Shown: positions 2,215 through 18,199 of the stretch, piece after piece | Layout: every line of letters starts with the position of its first letter | How positions within the stretch are numbered: position 1 is the first letter of the stretch | IMG/VR virus record: IMGVR_UViG_3300038412_000061 | Location: 1-64,000 of that record | Origin: a virus | DNA length: 64,000 nt | Strand: one strand, 5' to 3' | Program-made: the position numbers and the translations under genes | The notes under the pieces: generated by a model | What the model saw: only the letters and a program-made list of their open reading frames with translations | What the model was told of the DNA's origin: nothing | Database searches by the model: none

Positions 2215-2448
2215 CTTGTGTATTTGTCATTGAAACGTTCAAACGTCGCGCGAACATGATATTGTGGTCATTGTAGTTGATGTACCCCGGATGGGTCCGG
2301 TTTGCTAACCCCTGCACCTTCACATACTGGGCGGTTCACCTAGGGATAGGTAGACATACCATGCGCGACCACGCGCGACCCACATAACGACCAAAAACGC
2401 ATTACAACGCATTTTTAATCAATCAACCAAACGAAGGAGATGTTTACT

Positions 2449-3360
2449 ATGTCAAGAACTACTAACCTAACCGCGTCAGGTGTACCCACGACCGGTATGG
2501 CCTGCTCGAATTCTGGCGCACCGAGTCAGGTCTACAATTGGCAGTTAGAGGTTGTGTCAGCGCTAGACCTCCTGGTGTCTGCCAGAGTGAAGGAATACTT
2601 CACTGCCGACCGTATCGGCGCGACAGATACGGAGGTTCAGCAATTGGCCCTACGTTCAATCACCGGTACGCAACCGCGCCAAGACCTTAAGGGGAAATTG
2701 GCCACCCAAGTTACTATGTGGACAATCGCCGGATTCAACGTTGGCACCAGTCGCGCGCCGGTCATCGAGTATCACCTCACCGACCTATCCGCCGACATCG
2801 TCCTATCATCCGGAGGCCACGACGGGCGCGAGACCATGGCCAGCGCGGTAATGAAGGTGTCTCACCCCTACGAAACGGTATCGGTGCCAGAACAAACGCG
2901 CTATTTGCTGGTTAACCGGGGCGAGACGACCGCAACGGAGTATCTAGTATCCACAGGTGGCGACGCGCAAGACACCATCAACCGTGCCATTGCCAACGGT
3001 CGGGTTAAGGTGCGCCTAGTGGAGACGATACCGGCCCACGAAGTTCCGCGACAGTATCACCTGACGACGCCTAGTGAAGCGCCAGGATACACCAGGACTT
3101 GCGGTTGTGACGCCAAGTCACGAGGTCCCCTTACACGCACCGCGACCCTGGCGAATGCCCACAAGGGCGAGGCCTCAAACGCCAAGGGTCTGGCCCATTT
3201 GGTGGCGCGCGACTTGCTTACCATGGTCGAGACTAGGCGTGACGTGTTCGCCGGTGGCGTGCTCGCCAAGACGGGCGCGTCATACCAACTACAGCACTCC
3301 CCGGACCAGCGCCTAGTGGAAGGTATCCGCGCCAAGTACCTAGTAGGCACCACGCGATAG
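2449..3360 (+). CDS. Hypothetical protein (303 aa), no recognisable domain
   Basis: Same AACCAAACGAAGGAG leader as the cassette genes; long ORF followed by a terminator. Confidence 0.85.
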   Translation: MSRTTNLTASGVPTTGMACSNSGAPSQVYNWQLEVVSALDLLVSARVKEYFTADRIGATDTEVQQLALRSITGTQPRQDLKGKLATQVTMWTIAGFNVGTSRAPVIEYHLTDLSADIVLSSGGHDGRETMASAVMKVSHPYETVSVPEQTRYLLVNRGETTATEYLVSTGGDAQDTINRAIANGRVKVRLVETIPAHEVPRQYHLTTPSEAPGYTRTCGCDAKSRGPLTRTATLANAHKGEASNAKGLAHLVARDLLTMVETRRDVFAGGVLAKTGASYQLQHSPDQRLVEGIRAKYLVGTTR

Positions 3361-3371
3361 GCCACGACGAC

Positions 3372-3418
3372 GCCCACCCCTACGGGGGTGGGCATTGTCG
3401 CGTTCGGGTGACTTTTTA
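3372..3418 (+). terminator. Intrinsic terminator-like hairpin
   Basis: GCCCACCCC-TACG-GGGGTGGGC, with a T run about 20 nt downstream. Confidence 0.65.
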
Positions 3419-3788
3419 TGCAGTCATGGGGGGGTGGTGTCAAAATGCTCATTTATTCACGCCAGCGATTAAAAAGCCGTATTTCGAGTTTGCGAAGGCG
3501 GTACCCACGAAGATCTGATCAGCTAAATGGGGTATATGAACCGATGTTCATTGGAATGCGCCTATCCATTCTGATCAATCACTCTAGAATCCACGCATCG
3601 GGGCCTACGTTGGCAGGAGAGACGAGCAAAAGTGAAATAGATGGGGAGTACTTGATTTGATCTTCAGAGGCTTAGAAGTCAAATTAGCGCGTCTACTACA
3701 CCCTCAAAACCCTGGAAGTCCAAAAAAATCGATACCTCCGGTGGCCCCCCCAAAAAATTTCAGGGACCAAAATTCCCCCTATATGTAC

Positions 3789-3817
3789 TTGACAAACCCG
3801 TTGGACTGTGCTATACT
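3789..3817 (+). promoter_or_regulatory. SigA/sigma70-type promoter
   Basis: TTGACA-17-TATACT with TGn extension. Confidence 0.85.
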
Positions 3818-3823
3818 GCAATC

Positions 3824-3998
3824 GTCAGGAACCCACGGCGACTTGCGAACCGCCTACGGGCTGTGTAACCACCATTTGGGAGGCACATAAGCGAGCTGGC
3901 AGGATAGTGGCGCGTTTTTGGGTGCGGTGTGACGGAACCCATACTTAGGGGTAGCTCCCCACAAACCCTTCATCATCGCAAGCGTTGGAGGGCGTCCC
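3824..3998 (+). ncRNA. Candidate structured ncRNA (~175 nt)
   Basis: Follows a consensus promoter, no credible ORF; 5' CGGCG(A)CTTGCGA pairs with 3' TCGCAAGCGTTG; internal hairpins. Confidence 0.6.
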
Positions 3999-4095
3999 TA
4001 TGATAACTTACGAATATTCGTGATCAGCGACATAATGCGCTAAATTGTGAATATGAGCAAGTTCGACAACAGCGCCCCGGAAGATTCGTATAGGG

Positions 4096-4124
4096 TTGAC
4101 AATCCACGCTACATGTGTTAGACT
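4096..4124 (+). promoter_or_regulatory. SigA-type promoter, leaderless transcript
   Basis: TTGACA-17-TAGACT, ATG 6 nt downstream. Confidence 0.85.
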
Positions 4125-4130
4125 CGTGCC

Positions 4131-4433
4131 ATGACTATTAAAACGATAAGATGCCAACGTATCGACCCGCCGTCCGAGGCCGTATGGGTCACGGAGGAGA
4201 ACGTTGAGGAGGTCGCCGCCTGGGTGCGGTCCAAGAACCGCAACTTCCAAGCAGACGTTTACAGCAATGGAAAGCGTATCTGTCTGTGGAGCGATGATTC
4301 AGACTGGGTCAACTCCGTAGGGGTGAATAGCTACTTGATATACACGCCGGATGAGGAGTTCATTGACTCATGGGATTCCTTGGACTTCTACGATTTCGAA
4401 GGCGCCGAGTACTACAGGATTCTGGACAGGTGA
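4131..4433 (+). CDS. Hypothetical protein
   Basis: 100-aa leaderless ORF. Confidence 0.75.
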   Translation: MTIKTIRCQRIDPPSEAVWVTEENVEEVAAWVRSKNRNFQADVYSNGKRICLWSDDSDWVNSVGVNSYLIYTPDEEFIDSWDSLDFYDFEGAEYYRILDR

Positions 4434-4618
4434 CGACGACATCGCGGCTGAAAAAGATCGAGGAGCGCCTGGGCAAACTTGAGTGCGGTGAGCCCCGCGT
4501 CGTGTCAGGCTACCTGGAGGGTATGTACGTCAGACTGACCATCCCAGGCGAGTTGAAGCATATGCTCCATCGTGGCTCAACCATTGATCTCAACGTGACG
4601 GAGCTGGTTGGCAAGTAA
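4430..4618 (+). CDS. Hypothetical protein
   Basis: GTGA overlap with upstream gene; 3' part of track ORF 4370..4618. Confidence 0.6.
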   Translation: MTTTSRLKKIEERLGKLECGEPRVVSGYLEGMYVRLTIPGELKHMLHRGSTIDLNVTELVGK

Positions 4619-13215: not shown

Positions 13216-13242
13216 CAGAAATTTGCATAAATTGAAAATTAG

Positions 13243-13313
13243 TCCGGGCAGCACGAATCGGACATGCGGAGTCGAAGATATAAGCTTCGATTGGATAACC
13301 AATCCATACCCGG
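13243..13313 (-). tRNA. Non-canonical tRNA, anticodon TAT (Ile)
   Basis: CCGGGTA/TGCCCGG acceptor, 6-bp anticodon stem, loop CTTATAT, 5-nt D-loop, T-loop TCCGATT. Confidence 0.6.
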
Positions 13314-13314
13314 T

Positions 13315-13389
13315 TGGTCGAGGTACCCGGAGTCGAACCGAGAGCGCAAGGCTTAGAACACCTTTGGCAGTCCATCCGCCACTACCCCG
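13315..13389 (-). tRNA. Atypical tRNA-Arg(TCT), CCA encoded
   Basis: AAGGT-GTTCTAA-GCCTT anticodon arm, TTCGACT T-loop, G at positions 8 and 32. Confidence 0.7.
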
Positions 13390-13391
13390 TT

Positions 13392-13560
13392 GTAGGTCAC
13401 TTTACGGGTGACCAATCCCCCGAAGCAAGTGGTAACCAACCCTAGTCTCTTCGGCACAACTAACGTCAACCGCCATGAATATCCACTTTGGTTAGAGTGG
13501 CCCATCTGGTGTCTCCCCAGCGTTCTGTCCTCACACGGCTCAGGCGCGTTAATTGCGTTC
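13392..13560 (-). ncRNA. Candidate multi-domain pseudoknotted ncRNA (~170 nt)
   Basis: 11-bp closing helix with two G.U pairs specific to this strand, four further helices, 7-nt loop-loop complementarity; own promoter. Confidence 0.65.
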
Positions 13561-13566
13561 GAATAA

Positions 13567-13595
13567 AGTGTAGCACATGTTATAATTTGTGTCAA
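13567..13595 (-). promoter_or_regulatory. SigA-type promoter
   Basis: TTGACA-17-TACACT with TGn. Confidence 0.85.
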
Positions 13596-13599
13596 GTGC

Positions 13600-13651
13600 A
13601 AAAACAAAAAGTACCCCGGCAATGTGTTTTGACAGGGATTGCTCCGGAGTT
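13600..13651 (-). terminator. Terminator of the upstream tRNA transcript
   Basis: ACTCCGG(A)GCAAT...ATTGCCGGGGT followed by ACTTTTTGTTTTT. Confidence 0.65.
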
Positions 13652-13656
13652 TTAAG

Positions 13657-13730
13657 CTCTAGGAGATGGGGTCGAACCACCAAGTCTCTCGGTTCAGAGC
13701 CGAGTATTTTTCCGGTTAAACTATCCTAGA
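13657..13730 (-). tRNA. tRNA-Gln(CTG)
   Basis: Cloverleaf; loop CTCTGAA. Confidence 0.88.
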
Positions 13731-13748
13731 ATGTAAAAATGCAAAGCG

Positions 13749-13834
13749 CGGATAGAGTGAGATTTGAACTCACGCGGCTATGACACCCTAACGGTTTAGC
13801 AAACCGTCCCCTTAAACCACTTGGGTACCTATCC
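13749..13834 (-). tRNA. tRNA-Ser(GCT)
   Basis: Long variable arm; loop TTGCTAA. Confidence 0.92.
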
Positions 13835-13838
13835 ATTG

Positions 13839-13909
13839 CTCTGGGAACTGGACTCGAACCAATACCTTACGGGTTCAAAGCCCGCCGTCCTGCCTTAGAC
13901 TATCCCAGA
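13839..13909 (-). tRNA. tRNA-Gln(TTG)
   Basis: Cloverleaf; loop CTTTGAA. Confidence 0.92.
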
Positions 13910-14046
13910 TCGATCACTGCGTAATTCTTGATTCTTCTTCCGTGCCCTATTTCGCGTTTTAAACTTCTGTCGCGGGGACGACACCATTCGCAAGAATGGC
14001 CCTCAGGGCAAACTTTCCAAGCTTTATTTCTAACGGTCCTGCTCAA
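13900..14046 (-). CDS. 48-aa basic peptide (MSRTVRNKAWKVCPEGHSCEWCRPRDR...)
   Basis: GGAGG RBS, TTG start; stop overlaps the 5' end of tRNA-Gln(TTG). Confidence 0.5.
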   Translation of the reverse strand: MSRTVRNKAWKVCPEGHSCEWCRPRDRSLKREIGHGRRIKNYAVIDLG

Positions 14047-14188
14047 AACTCTTCCTCCACTCAACTTCTTCTGAGCGCCGTCGGATCTTATGACTAGGAG
14101 ATTCCAAGCCGTGATCCATGCAGTAACAAATTCCCCTACCGGGGATTTTGCATAAAGCGGTTTTCATCCTGCCCATCATTTTAGCCAT
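14030..14188 (-). CDS. 52-aa basic peptide (MAKMMGRMKTALCKIPGRGICYC...KIRRRSEEVEW)
   Basis: ATG shares its A with the CCA of tRNA-Leu(CAA); fills the spacer. Confidence 0.5.
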   Translation of the reverse strand: MAKMMGRMKTALCKIPGRGICYCMDHGLESPSHKIRRRSEEVEWRKSFEQDR

Positions 14189-14263
14189 GGTCCTGATCTA
14201 GGGAGTCGAACCCTAACTGTGACGCTTTTGAAACGCCTATCTCTGCCATTGGATTACATCAGG
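14188..14263 (-). tRNA. tRNA-Leu(CAA) with short variable arm, CCA encoded
   Basis: Loop TTCAAAA; ~5-nt variable region. Confidence 0.8.
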
Positions 14264-14325
14264 ATAACTCCCATCTACCCCTGCATCTCACTTAAGAAAT
14301 TTCGCATCGGGGGTAGTAGGGATAG

Positions 14326-14396
14326 AGGCGAGAACAGGATTTGAACCCGTGTAAGAGGTGTTGCAAGCCTCCACCTAACCGCTCGGACATCCCGCC
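14326..14396 (-). tRNA. tRNA-Cys(GCA)
   Basis: TTGCAAC loop, U73. Confidence 0.85.
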
Positions 14397-14411
14397 ATTG
14401 TTACTGCTTCG

Positions 14412-14493
14412 TACTCATGGGGAGACTTGAACTCCCACCCCTTTCGGGACTAGTTTCTAAAACTAGCGCGGTTGCCGATTACGCCACACGAGC
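14412..14493 (-). tRNA. tRNA-Leu(TAG)
   Basis: Long variable arm; loop TTTAGAA. Confidence 0.92.
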
Positions 14494-14506
14494 ATGTATT
14501 ACTTAG

Positions 14507-14588
14507 TTCGGAAGAGGAGACTCGAACTCCTACGCTTTTAAGCAAGGGGGTTTAAGCCCCTCGTGGCTACCGATTACACCACTTCCGA
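14507..14588 (-). tRNA. tRNA-Leu(TAA)
   Basis: Long variable arm; loop CTTAAAC. Confidence 0.92.
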
Positions 14589-14675
14589 ATAGAACAGTCC
14601 ACTCTCGGATACTGTCATCTGTCACGACCTCCGCTGTCGTTGCGTTCGGTTCATAAGCATAGCCGAATTGCTTCG

Positions 14676-14749
14676 TGGAGAGTAAGGGACTCGAACCCTT
14701 GGTATCTTCGGTGCAAGCGAAGCGCAGTTGCCGCTGTAGCCAACTCCCC
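14676..14749 (-). tRNA. tRNA-Ala(TGC)
   Basis: G3.U70; loop CTTGCAC. Confidence 0.9.
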
Positions 14750-14851
14750 ATATAAGGTACTTTTAAGTCATGCCCAGGACTGGGGCTAGCGAGTAGTCAG
14801 AGACTACCGTCAACCTCCACCAGTATGCTTTTTACTTCATCCCAAGAAGAG

Positions 14852-14924
14852 TGGAAACGGTGGGATTTGAACCCACGACCTCTAGTATGCCATACTAGCG
14901 CACTACCAACTGTGCTACATCCCC
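14852..14924 (-). tRNA. tRNA-Ala(GGC)
   Basis: G3.U70; loop ATGGCAT. Confidence 0.93.
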
Positions 14925-15000
14925 ATGTTCTCGTCTCTCCGAGATGTCACCACAGTTCGCTGCGGTTGCAAAGTAGAAGCCTCTAGAAGCCGCTACTTCG

Positions 15001-15072
15001 TGGTTCCCGAACGGTTCGAACGTTCTCCGCAAGGTTTTCAAGCTCGCGTGCCTCCAGGTACACCAGAGAACC
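15001..15072 (-). tRNA. tRNA-Phe(GAA)
   Basis: Loop TTGAAAA. Confidence 0.85.
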
Positions 15073-15154
15073 AAGTGAAGCAGCGGGTGGTTATCCCAAT
15101 TGGCAACTCAGTTACGCAGGCAACGACTCTGCCACCGTGCCCTAAACTACTTCG

Positions 15155-15228
15155 TACAGACTGAGGGAGTCGAACCCCCGAACCTTCTCCTTGTAAAAGA
15201 GACACTCTGGCCACTGAGTTAAGTCTGC
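15155..15228 (-). tRNA. tRNA-Val(TAC)
   Basis: Loop TTTACAA. Confidence 0.9.
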
Positions 15229-15276
15229 ATGTGTCGGTCTTTCCCGACTGTATAGAGAGGCGCTAGCCACCCATCG

Positions 15277-15349
15277 TCTCCCCACACCGACTCGAACGGT
15301 GATCGCTGGTTTCGTAGACCAGAATTTTAATCCATTAAACTACAAGGAG
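15277..15349 (-). tRNA. tRNA-Arg(ACG)
   Basis: Loop CTACGAA. Confidence 0.9.
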
Positions 15350-15414
15350 AAGCGGGCCTTTTAGTGACATGCCCAGGTACACCATTAAATGGGTACTGCG
15401 GGGAAGATCCCCAG

Positions 15415-15488
15415 TTGTGCAAGAGGGATTCGAACCCACGACCGACCGCGTATCAGACGGTTGCTCTACCAGACCGAGCTACTGCACA
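15415..15488 (-). tRNA. tRNA-Ile(GAT)
   Basis: Loop CTGATAC. Confidence 0.9.
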
Positions 15489-15502
15489 TCGTTTACTGCT
15501 AG

Positions 15503-15578
15503 TAGCGGCGGCGGGATTTGAACCCGCGATTCCTTGGTTATGAGCCAAGTGCCGTAGACCAGACTGGGCCACACCGCA
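15503..15578 (-). tRNA. tRNA-Met(CAT), initiator-like
   Basis: Loop CTCATAA; 1:72 mismatch. Confidence 0.88.
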
Positions 15579-15640
15579 TCGAACTACCGGCTTCTCCCCG
15601 GCAGGCTGTTCGGGCCTTAACGCGGGGGAGAAGCACTAGG

Positions 15641-15712
15641 GGTGAGCGAGGAGAATCGAACTCCCGCGACTTGGGTCACATCCAAGCGGTCTACCACTAA
15701 CCTACATCCACC
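15641..15712 (-). tRNA. tRNA-His(GTG)
   Basis: G-1:C73; loop ATGTGAC. Confidence 0.9.
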
Positions 15713-15803
15713 ATGTCTTCACTGGGCGGAACCTCACCCCCAGCGTTACCATCCCCGCTAACCCCCGGATGGCTTCCATACTGTTGGAACGAACTTCTTT
15801 CCA

Positions 15804-15832
15804 AGTGTAGCATAACTCCTGCCACTTGTCAA
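15804..15832 (-). promoter_or_regulatory. SigA-type promoter inside the tRNA array
   Basis: TTGACA-17-TACACT with TGn. Confidence 0.85.
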
Positions 15833-15843
15833 ATCTTTTTTCG

Positions 15844-15916
15844 CACGGGCGGAGAGAATCGAACTCCCAGTGGCAGGTTTTGGAGACCTGCTGACATTCC
15901 AATATGCCACACCCAT
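15844..15916 (-). tRNA. tRNA-Trp(CCA)
   Basis: Loop CTCCAAA, G73. Confidence 0.88.
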
Positions 15917-15984
15917 ATAGTCCCGTCTCTCCAGGATGCCACGTTTCTTGGGTCGATCAACTCCCAGGGAAAAACGTCCCCTCG

Positions 15985-16056
15985 TTGACCCCGTGGGAGT
16001 CGAACCCACATGAAACAGATTAAGAGTCTGCCGCATAACCGCTCTGCCAGAGATCA
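15985..16056 (-). tRNA. tRNA-Lys(CTT)
   Basis: Loop CTCTTAA. Confidence 0.9.
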
Positions 16057-16067
16057 ATGTTACTGCG

Positions 16068-16145
16068 TCGTAGATGAGGGAATCGAACCCCCTTGCCGAA
16101 GCCAGTGGTTTACAGCCACCTGCCGCCCATGCGAGCCTATCTACG
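16068..16145 (-). tRNA. tRNA-Tyr(GTA), C1:G72
   Basis: Loop CTGTAAA; variable arm GCTTCGGC. Confidence 0.85.
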
Positions 16146-16156
16146 TTGTTACTACG

Positions 16157-16229
16157 CTCCAGTTAATGGGTTCGAACCATTCTATCACGGTTAACAGCCG
16201 CGCACATTCGCCAAGATTGTTAAACTGGA
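16157..16229 (-). tRNA. tRNA-Asn(GTT)
   Basis: Loop CTGTTAA, G73. Confidence 0.88.
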
Positions 16230-16242
16230 ATGCTTTACTACG

Positions 16243-16314
16243 TTCTCCTAGGGAATTCTGCCATCCCGACCCTGGGCTTAAAAGGCCCCTGCTCTTCTTC
16301 TGAGCTACAGGAGA
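16243..16314 (-). tRNA. tRNA-Lys(TTT) with non-standard T-loop
   Basis: Loop CTTTTAA; T-loop GGCAGAA. Confidence 0.8.
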
Positions 16315-16325
16315 TCGATACTTCT

Positions 16326-16402
16326 TGGTCTAGTAGGAGGGATTTGAACCCCCAGCCTGATGGCCCCAAACCACCCGCTCTACCAAGTTGAGCCACTACT
16401 AG
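16326..16402 (-). tRNA. tRNA-Pro(TGG), CCA encoded
   Basis: Loop TTTGGGG. Confidence 0.92.
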
Positions 16403-16413
16403 ATGATACTGCG

Positions 16414-16516
16414 TACTTCTTACATGGGGGGCGCTCTGCCCACTTAAGCTACCCCAGGACTTATGCCTCCGAAGAGAATGCCCGTGGACGGGATTCGAAC
16501 CCGCACCTCCCCCTCG
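16414..16516 (-). ncRNA. Circularly permuted tRNA-like RNA (YrlA Y-RNA-type module)
   Basis: T-arm GCGGG-TTCGAAT-CCCGT precedes an acceptor-like helix capped by CTC-TTCG-GAG, then D-arm TAGCTTAAGTGGGCAGAGC; ends pair GGGGG/CCCCC. Confidence 0.8.
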
Positions 16517-16590
16517 CGCCAGTAGCGGGTTTCGATCCCAGCTGCCTTTCGATTGACAATCGAATGCTCTCCCGAGTGAGCTATACCGGC
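16517..16590 (-). tRNA. tRNA-Asp(GTC)
   Basis: Loop TTGTCAA, G73. Confidence 0.88.
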
Positions 16591-17087
16591 TTGTGTAATT
16601 CTAGGTAACCTTTTATTTCTTTGGAGTAAGTTTCAAACCACCCCAATCTCGTATTGCAATAAAGACAAAGTAGTCCTCTAACTTCCCCTGTCGCATGATC
16701 GTGATCAACGGCGAAGTGACTGTTCTTTCTTCCTGAACCTCTTTTGCATATAGAACATTTACCACCCTGCAACTCCAAAAGAGCATCATATCTTTCCGTA
16801 GTGATTCCTGAAGTGGCCTTCAGATATGAAGATCTAGTCTGTTTTTTAAGTCTTTCGTTGCTACAAGTATTACAATATTTCTGAGCGGTACCGGTAGCTT
16901 GAAATTCTTTACTGCATTCCGCGCACTTTATCACAGGAAGTTTTCTAGTAACGACGGTCCCCTTGCCGGAGCACACGTTAGAGCAAAACCTTCCAGTCCC
17001 ACTTTTGACTTGATAGGGATGACGGTAAAAAACTACCTCACAACCATCAAGCTCACACACAACATCGATGCCAGATCGTTTTCTCAT
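16581..17087 (-). CDS. Endonuclease VII-family HNH nuclease with N-terminal Cys-rich repeats (probable homing endonuclease)
   Basis: QGGKCSIC...AVDHDHATGEVRGLLCLYCNTRLG; low GC; inserted among tRNAs. Confidence 0.9.
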   Translation of the reverse strand: MRKRSGIDVVCELDGCEVVFYRHPYQVKSGTGRFCSNVCSGKGTVVTRKLPVIKCAECSKEFQATGTAQKYCNTCSNERLKKQTRSSYLKATSGITTERYDALLELQGGKCSICKRGSGRKNSHFAVDHDHATGEVRGLLCLYCNTRLGWFETYSKEIKGYLELHKPV

Positions 17088-17093
17088 ACTTCT

Positions 17094-17122
17094 ATGGTAT
17101 CACAAGAACATTTAGAAGTCAA
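17094..17122 (-). promoter_or_regulatory. SigA-type promoter, leaderless HNH transcript
   Basis: TTGACT-17-TACCAT with TGn, ATG 6 nt downstream. Confidence 0.7.
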
Positions 17123-17141
17123 GACTTTACTTCTTACTACG

Positions 17142-17225
17142 CGGAGCCCGGAGGTACTGCCCCCCTGGGATTGCTCCCCGATTCGCTTTCAAGGCGAGCC
17201 CCCGACTATCCGAGGTTCAGACTCC
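17142..17225 (-). tRNA. tRNA-Ser(TGA) with non-standard T-loop
   Basis: Loop CTTGAAA; long variable arm; T-loop GCAGTAC. Confidence 0.78.
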
Positions 17226-17291
17226 ATTGTTGGAGCGTCGGGCTGATTAGACCCGTTAAAAGCGACTTCTTATAATTCGCTTAACGCTTCG

Positions 17292-17362
17292 TACTGTTAC
17301 GGGGTCTCGATCCCCGTCTGCCGCCCTGAGAAAGCGGAGTGCTACCATCACACCCTAACAGC
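17292..17362 (-). tRNA. tRNA-Glu(CTC)
   Basis: Loop TTCTCAG. Confidence 0.87.
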
Positions 17363-17458
17363 AAGTAAAAGTGGAACGGCTGACTAGGCCTAAGGCTAGA
17401 ACGACCTCTCGGGCAAAATCGTCAATCTCGCCGTAGGAACATCTATCCAACCACTTCG

Positions 17459-17531
17459 CAGTCTGACGGAGACTCGAACTCCGGCTACGAGGGTGAAAAC
17501 CTCGCGTCCTAGGCCACTAGACGACCAGACC
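17459..17531 (-). tRNA. tRNA-Glu(TTC)
   Basis: Loop TTTTCAC. Confidence 0.93.
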
Positions 17532-17546
17532 ATGTTTTACTACTAG

Positions 17547-17618
17547 AGTCTCAGGCGGGGTACGATCCCGCGACCTCCTACTTGGCAAGCAGGCGTTCTT
17601 CCGCTGAACTACTAAGAC
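17547..17618 (-). tRNA. tRNA-Gly(GCC)
   Basis: Loop TTGCCAA, U73. Confidence 0.88.
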
Positions 17619-17630
17619 ATTGTTACTTCG

Positions 17631-17701
17631 ACCGTCATGCCGGATTCGAACCGGCGCCGCCTACTTGGAAGGAAGGAAGTCTACCACTAACCTAACAACG
17701 G
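17631..17701 (-). tRNA. tRNA-Gly(TCC)
   Basis: Loop CTTCCAA, U73. Confidence 0.88.
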
Positions 17702-17713
17702 ATTGTTACTGCG

Positions 17714-17785
17714 TGCCGAAATGAGGGAACGATCCTCATCCTCTTCGTTACCAACGAAGCGTGCTTCCTTTATCACTATTACGGC
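17714..17785 (-). tRNA. tRNA-Thr(GGT)
   Basis: Loop TTGGTAA. Confidence 0.85.
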
Positions 17786-17853
17786 ATGTGAAGTGTTCGG
17801 GTTAAGTCATTCCCGATGAAGATGCGCTGCCTTGGACCGCCCTCACCACCTCG

Positions 17854-17924
17854 TTCCCCCGGACGGATTCGAACCGCCGCATCTGAGTTACGAACTCAGA
17901 GTTCTCCCGCTAAACTACAAGGGA
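17854..17924 (-). tRNA. tRNA-Thr(CGT)
   Basis: Loop TTCGTAA. Confidence 0.88.
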
Positions 17925-17929
17925 ATGCG

Positions 17930-18002
17930 TGCCGCTAACAGGATTCGAACCCATGACCTGACGCTTACAAGGCGCCTGCTCTACCACCTGAGCTACAACG
18001 GC
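17930..18002 (-). tRNA. tRNA-Thr(TGT)
   Basis: Loop CTTGTAA. Confidence 0.93.
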
Positions 18003-18011
18003 ATGTTTACT

Positions 18012-18040
18012 ATTGTACTGCAAATTCTTTAGGATGTCAA
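18012..18040 (-). promoter_or_regulatory. SigA-type promoter of the tRNA array
   Basis: TTGACA-17-TACAAT. Confidence 0.85.
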
Positions 18041-18043
18041 GCA

Positions 18044-18111
18044 GAAAGAAAAAAAGAGCGCAACCCCAATAAACACTTTCCCTCCCGAAAGTACTTACCA
18101 GAGCTGCGCTC
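18044..18111 (-). terminator. Long hairpin terminator
   Basis: GAGCGCAGCTCTGGTAAGTACTTTC / GAAAGTGTTTATTGGGGTTGCGCTC followed by a T run. Confidence 0.8.
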
Positions 18112-18122
18112 CTCGAACCGCT

Positions 18123-18199
18123 TGGTGGCGGAGACTCGGAATCGAACCGAGGACATCTGGTTATGAGCCAGATCGGAGCACCAGCCCCAGCCTCCCGCT
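18123..18199 (-). tRNA. Atypical tRNA with CAT anticodon, CCA encoded
   Basis: Loop CTCATAA, TTCGATT T-loop; bulged and mismatched acceptor stem. Confidence 0.75.

Follow-up and report, generated by a model that had tools for sequence, protein, structure and literature searches.

Whether the segment at positions 3789–3998 encodes a stand-alone structured RNA, and what such an RNA might do for the phage that carries it, is the question raised by this locus. The original prediction described a structured RNA under a near-consensus promoter and proposed a phage ncRNA, possibly a decoy, antitoxin mimic or scaffold. The window analyzed here (64 kb) is the first part of a 95,949-bp IMG/VR phage record (G000) whose sample appears to be a mine-drainage metagenome. 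We know of few phage-encoded ncRNAs, mostly with no function known to us, and of almost none from actinobacterial phages. The G000 host is probably actinobacterial, as suggested by several features taken together: 31 tRNA genes (ARAGORN), an RtcB ligase gene, a large terminase (510 aa) with ~32% identity to Arthrobacter phage terminases, an Rpf-type transglycosylase domain from a family found only in Corynebacterium among 14 control genomes, and several promoters at leaderless distance from a start codon. Just 4 of the 31 tRNA genes (window 13242–18198) encode the CCA end, and the host must supply CCA post-transcriptionally.

Promoters and coding content

Promoter P1 (Table 1) matches 11 of 12 consensus bases, with an additional TG before the −10 (promoter scan), which confirms the near-consensus promoter originally described; promoter-like sites number 3 in 12 kb versus 7.7 expected from shuffles. 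P1 is one of ~20 TTGACA-17-TAnnnT promoters genome-wide in G000, many of which carry TG before the −10 and 6 of which have a start codon 6–7 nt past the −10. The predicted P1 start site, at ~3823–3825, has no start codon. The A-tracts upstream of the −35 are possibly an UP element of P1. The sole close relative in IMG/VR, G001 (IMGVR_UViG_3300050120_000115; 88,953 bp; loci L002 and L007), has an identical −35, TGTGC and −10 at the syntenic site (L002 885–913), followed by ~150 nt without an ORF and then by its own P2.

The next gene of the window does have its own promoter, as had been claimed: 6 nt separate the end of the P2 −10 from ATG 4131 of a 100-aa gene, which is leaderless spacing. In G001, the same 6-nt distance separates the −10 of P2 (1104–1132) from the start codon, ATG, of an 87-aa gene (layout L007 1104–1141), and we found no homology between the 100-aa and 87-aa proteins. 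In all three phages compared here (window 4096–4133, L007 1104–1141 and L012 6436–6473), the promoter of the first small early gene ends 6–7 nt before the start codon, and leaderless mRNAs are therefore expected; GGAGG ribosome-binding sites are used by other genes of G000.

ORFs overlapping the RNA region are limited to frames of 24–46 aa. These frames could in principle provide a small protein or leader peptide; however, the 46-aa frame begins inside the −10 box, the predicted start site offers no start codon, and no ORF is conserved between the window and G001, where short peptide matches switch frame and track conserved nucleotide blocks. A peptide product is thus highly improbable, in agreement with the earlier claim that the segment holds no credible ORF.

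Table 1. Features of the P1 locus and its surroundings (window coordinates)
Feature	Position	Strand	Details
Conserved non-coding region upstream of P1	3400..3788	.	three-way alignment (window, L002 410–885, L012 5880–6435)
A-tracts upstream of P1 −35 (CAAAAAATTT, CAAAATT)	3752..3778	+	CCAAAAAT block kept in 3/3 phages
P1 promoter	3789..3817	+	TTGACA-17-TATACT; spacer ends TGTGC (extended −10 TG)
Structured RNA body	3823..3998	+	~176 nt; terminal helix closing a multi-helix junction (MFE folds)
P1b 5′ strand CGGCG	3836..3840	+	pairs with CGUUG 3983–3987; two G.U pairs
P1a 5′ strand CUUGCGA	3842..3848	+	7 bp with UCGCAAG 3976–3982; pair probability ~1.0
H1 GCC-UACG-GGC	3852..3861	+	UNCG-type tetraloop; pair probability 0.89
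H2 UGUGU..CCA-loop-UGG..GCACA	3862..3887	+	followed by conserved UAAG 3888–3891
H4 UGGGU-13 nt-ACCCA	3919..3941	+	preceded by variable stretch 3892–3918
H5 GGGG-UAGCU-CCCC	3948..3960	+	sequence conserved
C/A-rich linker ACAAACCCUUCAUCA, 15 nt	3961..3975	+	contains CCCUUC 3966–3971
SD-like GGAGG and ATG	3987..4002	+	GGAGG 3987–3991, 8-nt spacer, ATG 4000–4002, 7-codon frame
P2 promoter and leaderless ATG 4131	4096..4133	+	TTGACA-17-TAGACT with TG, site 4096–4124

Fold, conservation and transcript ends

The (+) strand MFE fold of the window contains every end pairing and hairpin listed in the original prediction, including the GGA/UCC and CCC/GGG extensions of the terminal helix. The preference for the (+) strand noted earlier was also recovered, with folding energies of −61.1 versus −55.4 kcal/mol in the window and −54.3 versus −47.9 in the G001 homologue, and with the G.U pairs falling on the (+) strand. 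The MFE in the window is no better than that of shuffles (z = 0.24 and 0.07), and the G001 RNA has a z-score of −1.66. The first 30 bases form 18 pairs with the last 30 in the window, a value reached by 18 of 500 shuffles, and 16 in G001, reached by 28 of 500. Support for the RNA beyond chance comes from the promoter and fold kept in a second phage and not from folding energy.

Folded separately, the window and G001 RNAs gave the same helix order and plan, in which a three-segment terminal helix encloses four or five hairpins. H1 comes right after its 5′ strand; next are a long H2 with AUAAG behind it, a middle that varies (one hairpin in G001 versus two in the window), H5, the linker and the 3′ strand of the terminal helix. 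The RNA is single copy in each of the two genomes. Among 35 pairs compared, none was broken, 9 had both bases replaced and 4 a single base, in an alignment of two sequences only whose register we set ourselves. The safest compensatory cases are P1a (CUUGAGA/UCUCAAG in G001, with one C-G pair replaced by A-U on both sides) and H2 (UAUCC..GGAUA, with two both-side changes and one single-side change), which is anchored by the same AUAAG directly after it. P1b reads CUACG/CGUAG in G001, with one both-side and one single-side change, in a register that hinges on a bulge of 1 nt versus 5 nt; the structure guided our choice of register for H1, P1b and H3/H4, which therefore weigh less. At the H1 position, G001 has UGCGG-AAU-CCGUA; its H4 region holds a single UGGACC-GAGAUA-GGUUCA hairpin, and its H5 reads GGGGGG-UUGC-UCCCCC.

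A covariance model (R1) whose only input was the window sequence with the proposed structure recovered G001 922–1071 from end to end (17.9 bits, E = 0.0026 in 92.5 kb), whereas the same model without base pairs (R2) had no match to G001 at E up to 10, indicating that the detectable homology signal is carried largely by structure. The best conserved bases lie in helices without covariation (H5 GGGG/CCCC, the 3′ strand of the terminal helix and the GGCGUCC tail), and the unpaired stretches have only words of 4–5 nt in common (UAAG, AAACC). Judged from the two sequences, the segment is a conserved, well-delimited non-coding RNA module that forms a new two-member family, and we think it likely that it is a functional structured RNA of some sort.

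The linker and tail of the RNA offer a second pairing. Specifically, CCCUUC in the linker can pair with GGAGGG (3987–3992), forming an alternative (Alt) helix that competes with P1b and P0 and cannot coexist with the outer portion of the terminal helix. The corresponding pairing in G001 is CCACCC/GGGUGG, with two both-side changes and one single-side change relative to the window. The Alt helix has a probability of 0.48 in G001 and 0.00 in the window, so that the closed and Alt forms are predicted to be about equally populated in the former, with the closed form dominant in the latter. Compensatory changes are seen in this linker–tail pairing too, and the RNA may therefore alternate between closed and open forms. 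Formation of Alt together with P1a as a pseudoknot looks unfavorable, the 4-nt linkers being apparently too short by general pseudoknot geometry.

No intrinsic terminator was found by scanning the (+) strand from P1 to the end of the small downstream operon, nor after the G001 RNA. In one RNA run of a mine-drainage metatranscriptome, contigs cover 3955–4178, 4158–4401 and 4434–4584 (depth 2–5, strand unknown, filtered); such contigs cannot show RNA ends. The first of them extends from the 3′ part of the RNA across P2 into the beginning of the next gene, a hint of read-through from P1. No contig covers the RNA body at 3824–3954, which at such low depth is not evidence of silence, and small structured RNAs are often lost from metatranscriptome libraries. 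A stand-alone RNA would have to acquire its 3′ end by processing or at a U-less hairpin, and U-less hairpins do lie downstream of the RNA in both phages. Thus, the ncRNA reading itself stood, with a conserved promoter and fold and no conserved ORF, but its stand-alone part can be no more than putative, given the missing terminator and the bridging contig.

Relatives and the upstream conserved region

Among 5.8 billion proteins, the 306-aa protein encoded upstream has a single relative, P0002, through which the G001 and L012 loci were reached. The 306-aa protein (window 2440–3360) has two invariant motifs, SSGGHDGRE and TRTCGC, and carries an insertion of 63 aa that P0002 lacks; the 243/306-aa protein belongs to no family in Pfam or PHROGs, and its AlphaFold model was unusable (pLDDT 32). 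L012 (Ga0208357_1005443; 6.8 kb) lacks the RNA, although the non-coding region upstream is kept and a promoter occupies the P1 position; this promoter lies 7 nt before a start codon and drives a leaderless ORF directly. The spacer of the L012 promoter resembles that of the G001 P2, and in G001, P1 and P2 share TTGACAACTGC. Because L012 retains the region and the promoter without the RNA, the RNA with one promoter copy behaves, as far as these three loci indicate, as a dispensable module gained or lost between repeated promoters. The flanking proteins are 37–51% identical between the phages.

The conserved non-coding region, ~390 bp long, separates P1 from the terminator of the 306-aa gene and is kept block-wise in 3/3 phages. 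The blocks include GCGGTACCCACG (3498–3509) followed, after exactly 26 nt, by the palindrome ATGAAC-CGAT-GTTCAT (3536–3551), as well as AAAGTGAAATAG, AGAGGCTNAGA and ATCGATACCTCCGGTGG; the upstream-region motif can be written as GCGGTACNCANG-N26-ATGAAC-N4-GTTCAT. GATC sites are clustered in the region. RNAalifold on the three-way alignment gave a covariation term of +2.12, which supports no conserved RNA fold; the region thus seems to act at the DNA level, as regulator sites or as an origin. Where this region begins, L012 (5915–5975) carries four GGGATGGTC-type direct repeats (iteron-like), of which there are fewer in the window.

Further copies of the RNA were sought in several collections. 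Blastn of 3400–4500 against the cultured phages of INPHARED returned no match, and neither did IMG/VR searched with the flanking proteins or with an exact 21-mer. A loose RNA pattern hit nine loci in IMG/VR, of which L007 alone is real and the rest are coding sequence; a scan for the upstream-region pattern found only L007. In genome contigs, the pattern scan gave 14 chance matches, and the most similar, L017 (an Acidimicrobiaceae MAG), sits inside a 370-aa ORF. Distant phages reached through a conserved 117-aa neighbor gene (L030–L038) showed no R1 match and no synteny.

Two further observations were made on the surroundings of the RNA. A piece of 78–85 nt at window 4007–4091 recurs, with 7 differences, in 157-nt DNA contigs of the source metagenome that have quite different flanks; it contains the palindrome ACGAATATTCGT, folds as a long imperfect hairpin, is absent from G001 and could represent a short mobile or mosaic element. 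In addition, RtcB has 727 aa in the related phage (L007 2196–4379, − strand) versus 394 aa in the window, and the additional central portion resembles an endonuclease-containing intein.

Known families and possible roles

The earlier failure to assign a known family was upheld by an Rfam check: at gathering thresholds, Rfam 15 (4,227 models) found only tRNAs in the whole window and nothing in L012 or L007, and at E up to 10 the best scores were 8–15 bits versus cut-offs of 34–59, with no family common to both homologues. A literature search returned general background only (phage transcriptomes and leaderless mRNAs).

Several known RNAs resemble this one in part. Y RNA/YrlA is similar in its terminal helix formed from both ends and its branched body, and G000 also has RtcB and many tRNAs; however, it was excluded because we found no Ro60/Rsr (TROVE, PF05731) match in G000, although Deinococcus and Bacteroides controls responded, no tRNA-like module (T-arm, D-arm) at 3789–3998 by ARAGORN, and no tRNA/YrlA by Rfam. 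A retron msr-msd was rejected for want of a reverse transcriptase match (PF00078) in G000, and a tRNA or tmRNA because none of the 31 ARAGORN tRNAs lies at the RNA site and no tmRNA was found. The phi29 pRNA is ~174 nt long, contains no ORF, is transcribed from a strong early host-type promoter near the genome end and has paired ends closing a junction. The likeness lies in size, early promoter, position and paired ends, but G000 is a 96-kb phage, not a phi29-like podovirus, has an ordinary large terminase and gave no RF00044 match, and the RNA cannot be an essential part of packaging, since the close relative L012 lacks it. The actinobacterial 6C sRNA has C-rich loops that could pair with G-rich sites, and our RNA shares with it a probable actinobacterial setting and an exposed C-rich strand able to pair with G-rich sites; our RNA differs in having no Rfam match and in that its C-rich strand shows covariation with the tail of the same molecule and not with a fixed external SD. 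An antitoxin mimic, one of the roles first suggested, gained no support, as we saw neither repeats nor a toxin partner.

The closest counterparts are small stable phage RNAs of unassigned function, among them rnaC and rnaD of T4 (species 1 and 2). These are structured ncRNAs of 100–200 nt, made early by the host polymerase and without an assigned function; lacking a terminator of their own, they need processing, and they sit in the tRNA cluster and are cut from tRNA precursors. The window RNA differs in lying 9 kb from the tRNA array and having its own promoter, and it has no sequence or model similarity to them.

Our preferred reading, held tentatively and a little short of an even chance, is a stable, early, trans-acting and probably protein-binding ncRNA that serves as an accessory gene of the early region. 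On this model, the host RNA polymerase holoenzyme would transcribe the RNA from P1 immediately after infection, the read-through tail of the terminator-less transcript would be trimmed off, and the paired ends would shield the RNA from exonucleases so that it accumulates stably. Acting in trans, the RNA would most likely bind protein, as a scaffold or decoy, and not serve as an antisense RNA; protein binding is preferred because the conserved bases sit in non-covarying helices and the unpaired stretches share nothing beyond short words. Several points weigh against a trans-acting RNA: the comparison has two sequences only and structure-guided registers for H1, P1b and H3/H4, the MFE z-scores are ordinary, no terminator follows the RNA, and the contigs (3955–4584) run into the next gene and skip 3824–3954, unlike what an abundant discrete RNA would give.

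The main rival, which we regard as unlikely although far from negligible, holds that the segment is a cis-acting 5′ leader of the P1 mRNA, in which an SD masked by the terminal or the Alt helix controls the ATG 7–8 nt on. The usual riboswitch layout is a junction closed by a terminal helix with an expression signal directly after it, and the locus resembles a translational riboswitch or SD-masking leader in its helix-closed junction, its C-rich/SD-like alternative helix and the nearby ATG. Specifically, the window has GGAGG-8 nt-ATG 4000 and the L007 counterpart GGTGG-7 nt-ATG 1073, which opens a frame running into the P2 gene; this ATG is invariant in the window/G001 alignment, the Alt helix has two both-side changes and takes up about half of the L007 ensemble, and both the lack of a terminator before the next gene and the contig bridging 3955–4178 fit a leader. 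Set against this, the Alt changes and the SD-like word followed by ATG come from two sequences only, and the window ATG opens just 7 codons. Moreover, G001 has U in place of the central A of GGAGG, with the Alt partner changed too, which points to selection for the helix and not for ribosome binding, and the SD-like bases are paired in both conformers, leaving no evident ON state. A conserved downstream gene of the same function without an intervening promoter, as expected for a riboswitch, was not found: P2, a leaderless promoter, lies between, and the downstream proteins are unrelated. No known aptamer class, and no Rfam riboswitch, matched the RNA.

We consider it rather improbable that the RNA has no function and that the segment is a decayed cassette left by shuffling between repeated early promoters or a DNA-level element; what would then matter is strong transcription away from the conserved upstream region, e.g., for activation of an origin or regulatory site. 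Such a view would account for L012, which has the upstream region and promoter without the RNA, and for the TTGACAACTGC common to P1 and P2 in L007, between which recombination could create or remove the segment; the block-wise conservation of the upstream 390 bp in three phages without RNA covariation and the ordinary folding energy agree with it as well. However, a neutral remnant would not keep its helices by compensatory changes while the flanking proteins are only 37–51% identical, and the homologue is detected by the structured model but missed by the sequence-only one.

The trans-acting reading can be carried a step further, although we rate this extension as speculative and improbable: the RNA may belong to a new family of phage RNAs that act early and in trans, binding and neutralizing a host protein (e.g., an RNA-binding defense or RNA-repair factor), carried as a gain-and-loss cassette, in the way that anti-defense genes are carried, with closed and open forms gating binding.

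The RNA is thus a well-delimited candidate for in vitro synthesis and probing, rather than the discovery of a mechanism. Its presence and absence among relatives mark an accessory early function, the class that holds host-takeover and counter-defense factors. If the RNA does bind a host factor or switch between forms, it would add an RNA-based tool to the early strategy of the phage.
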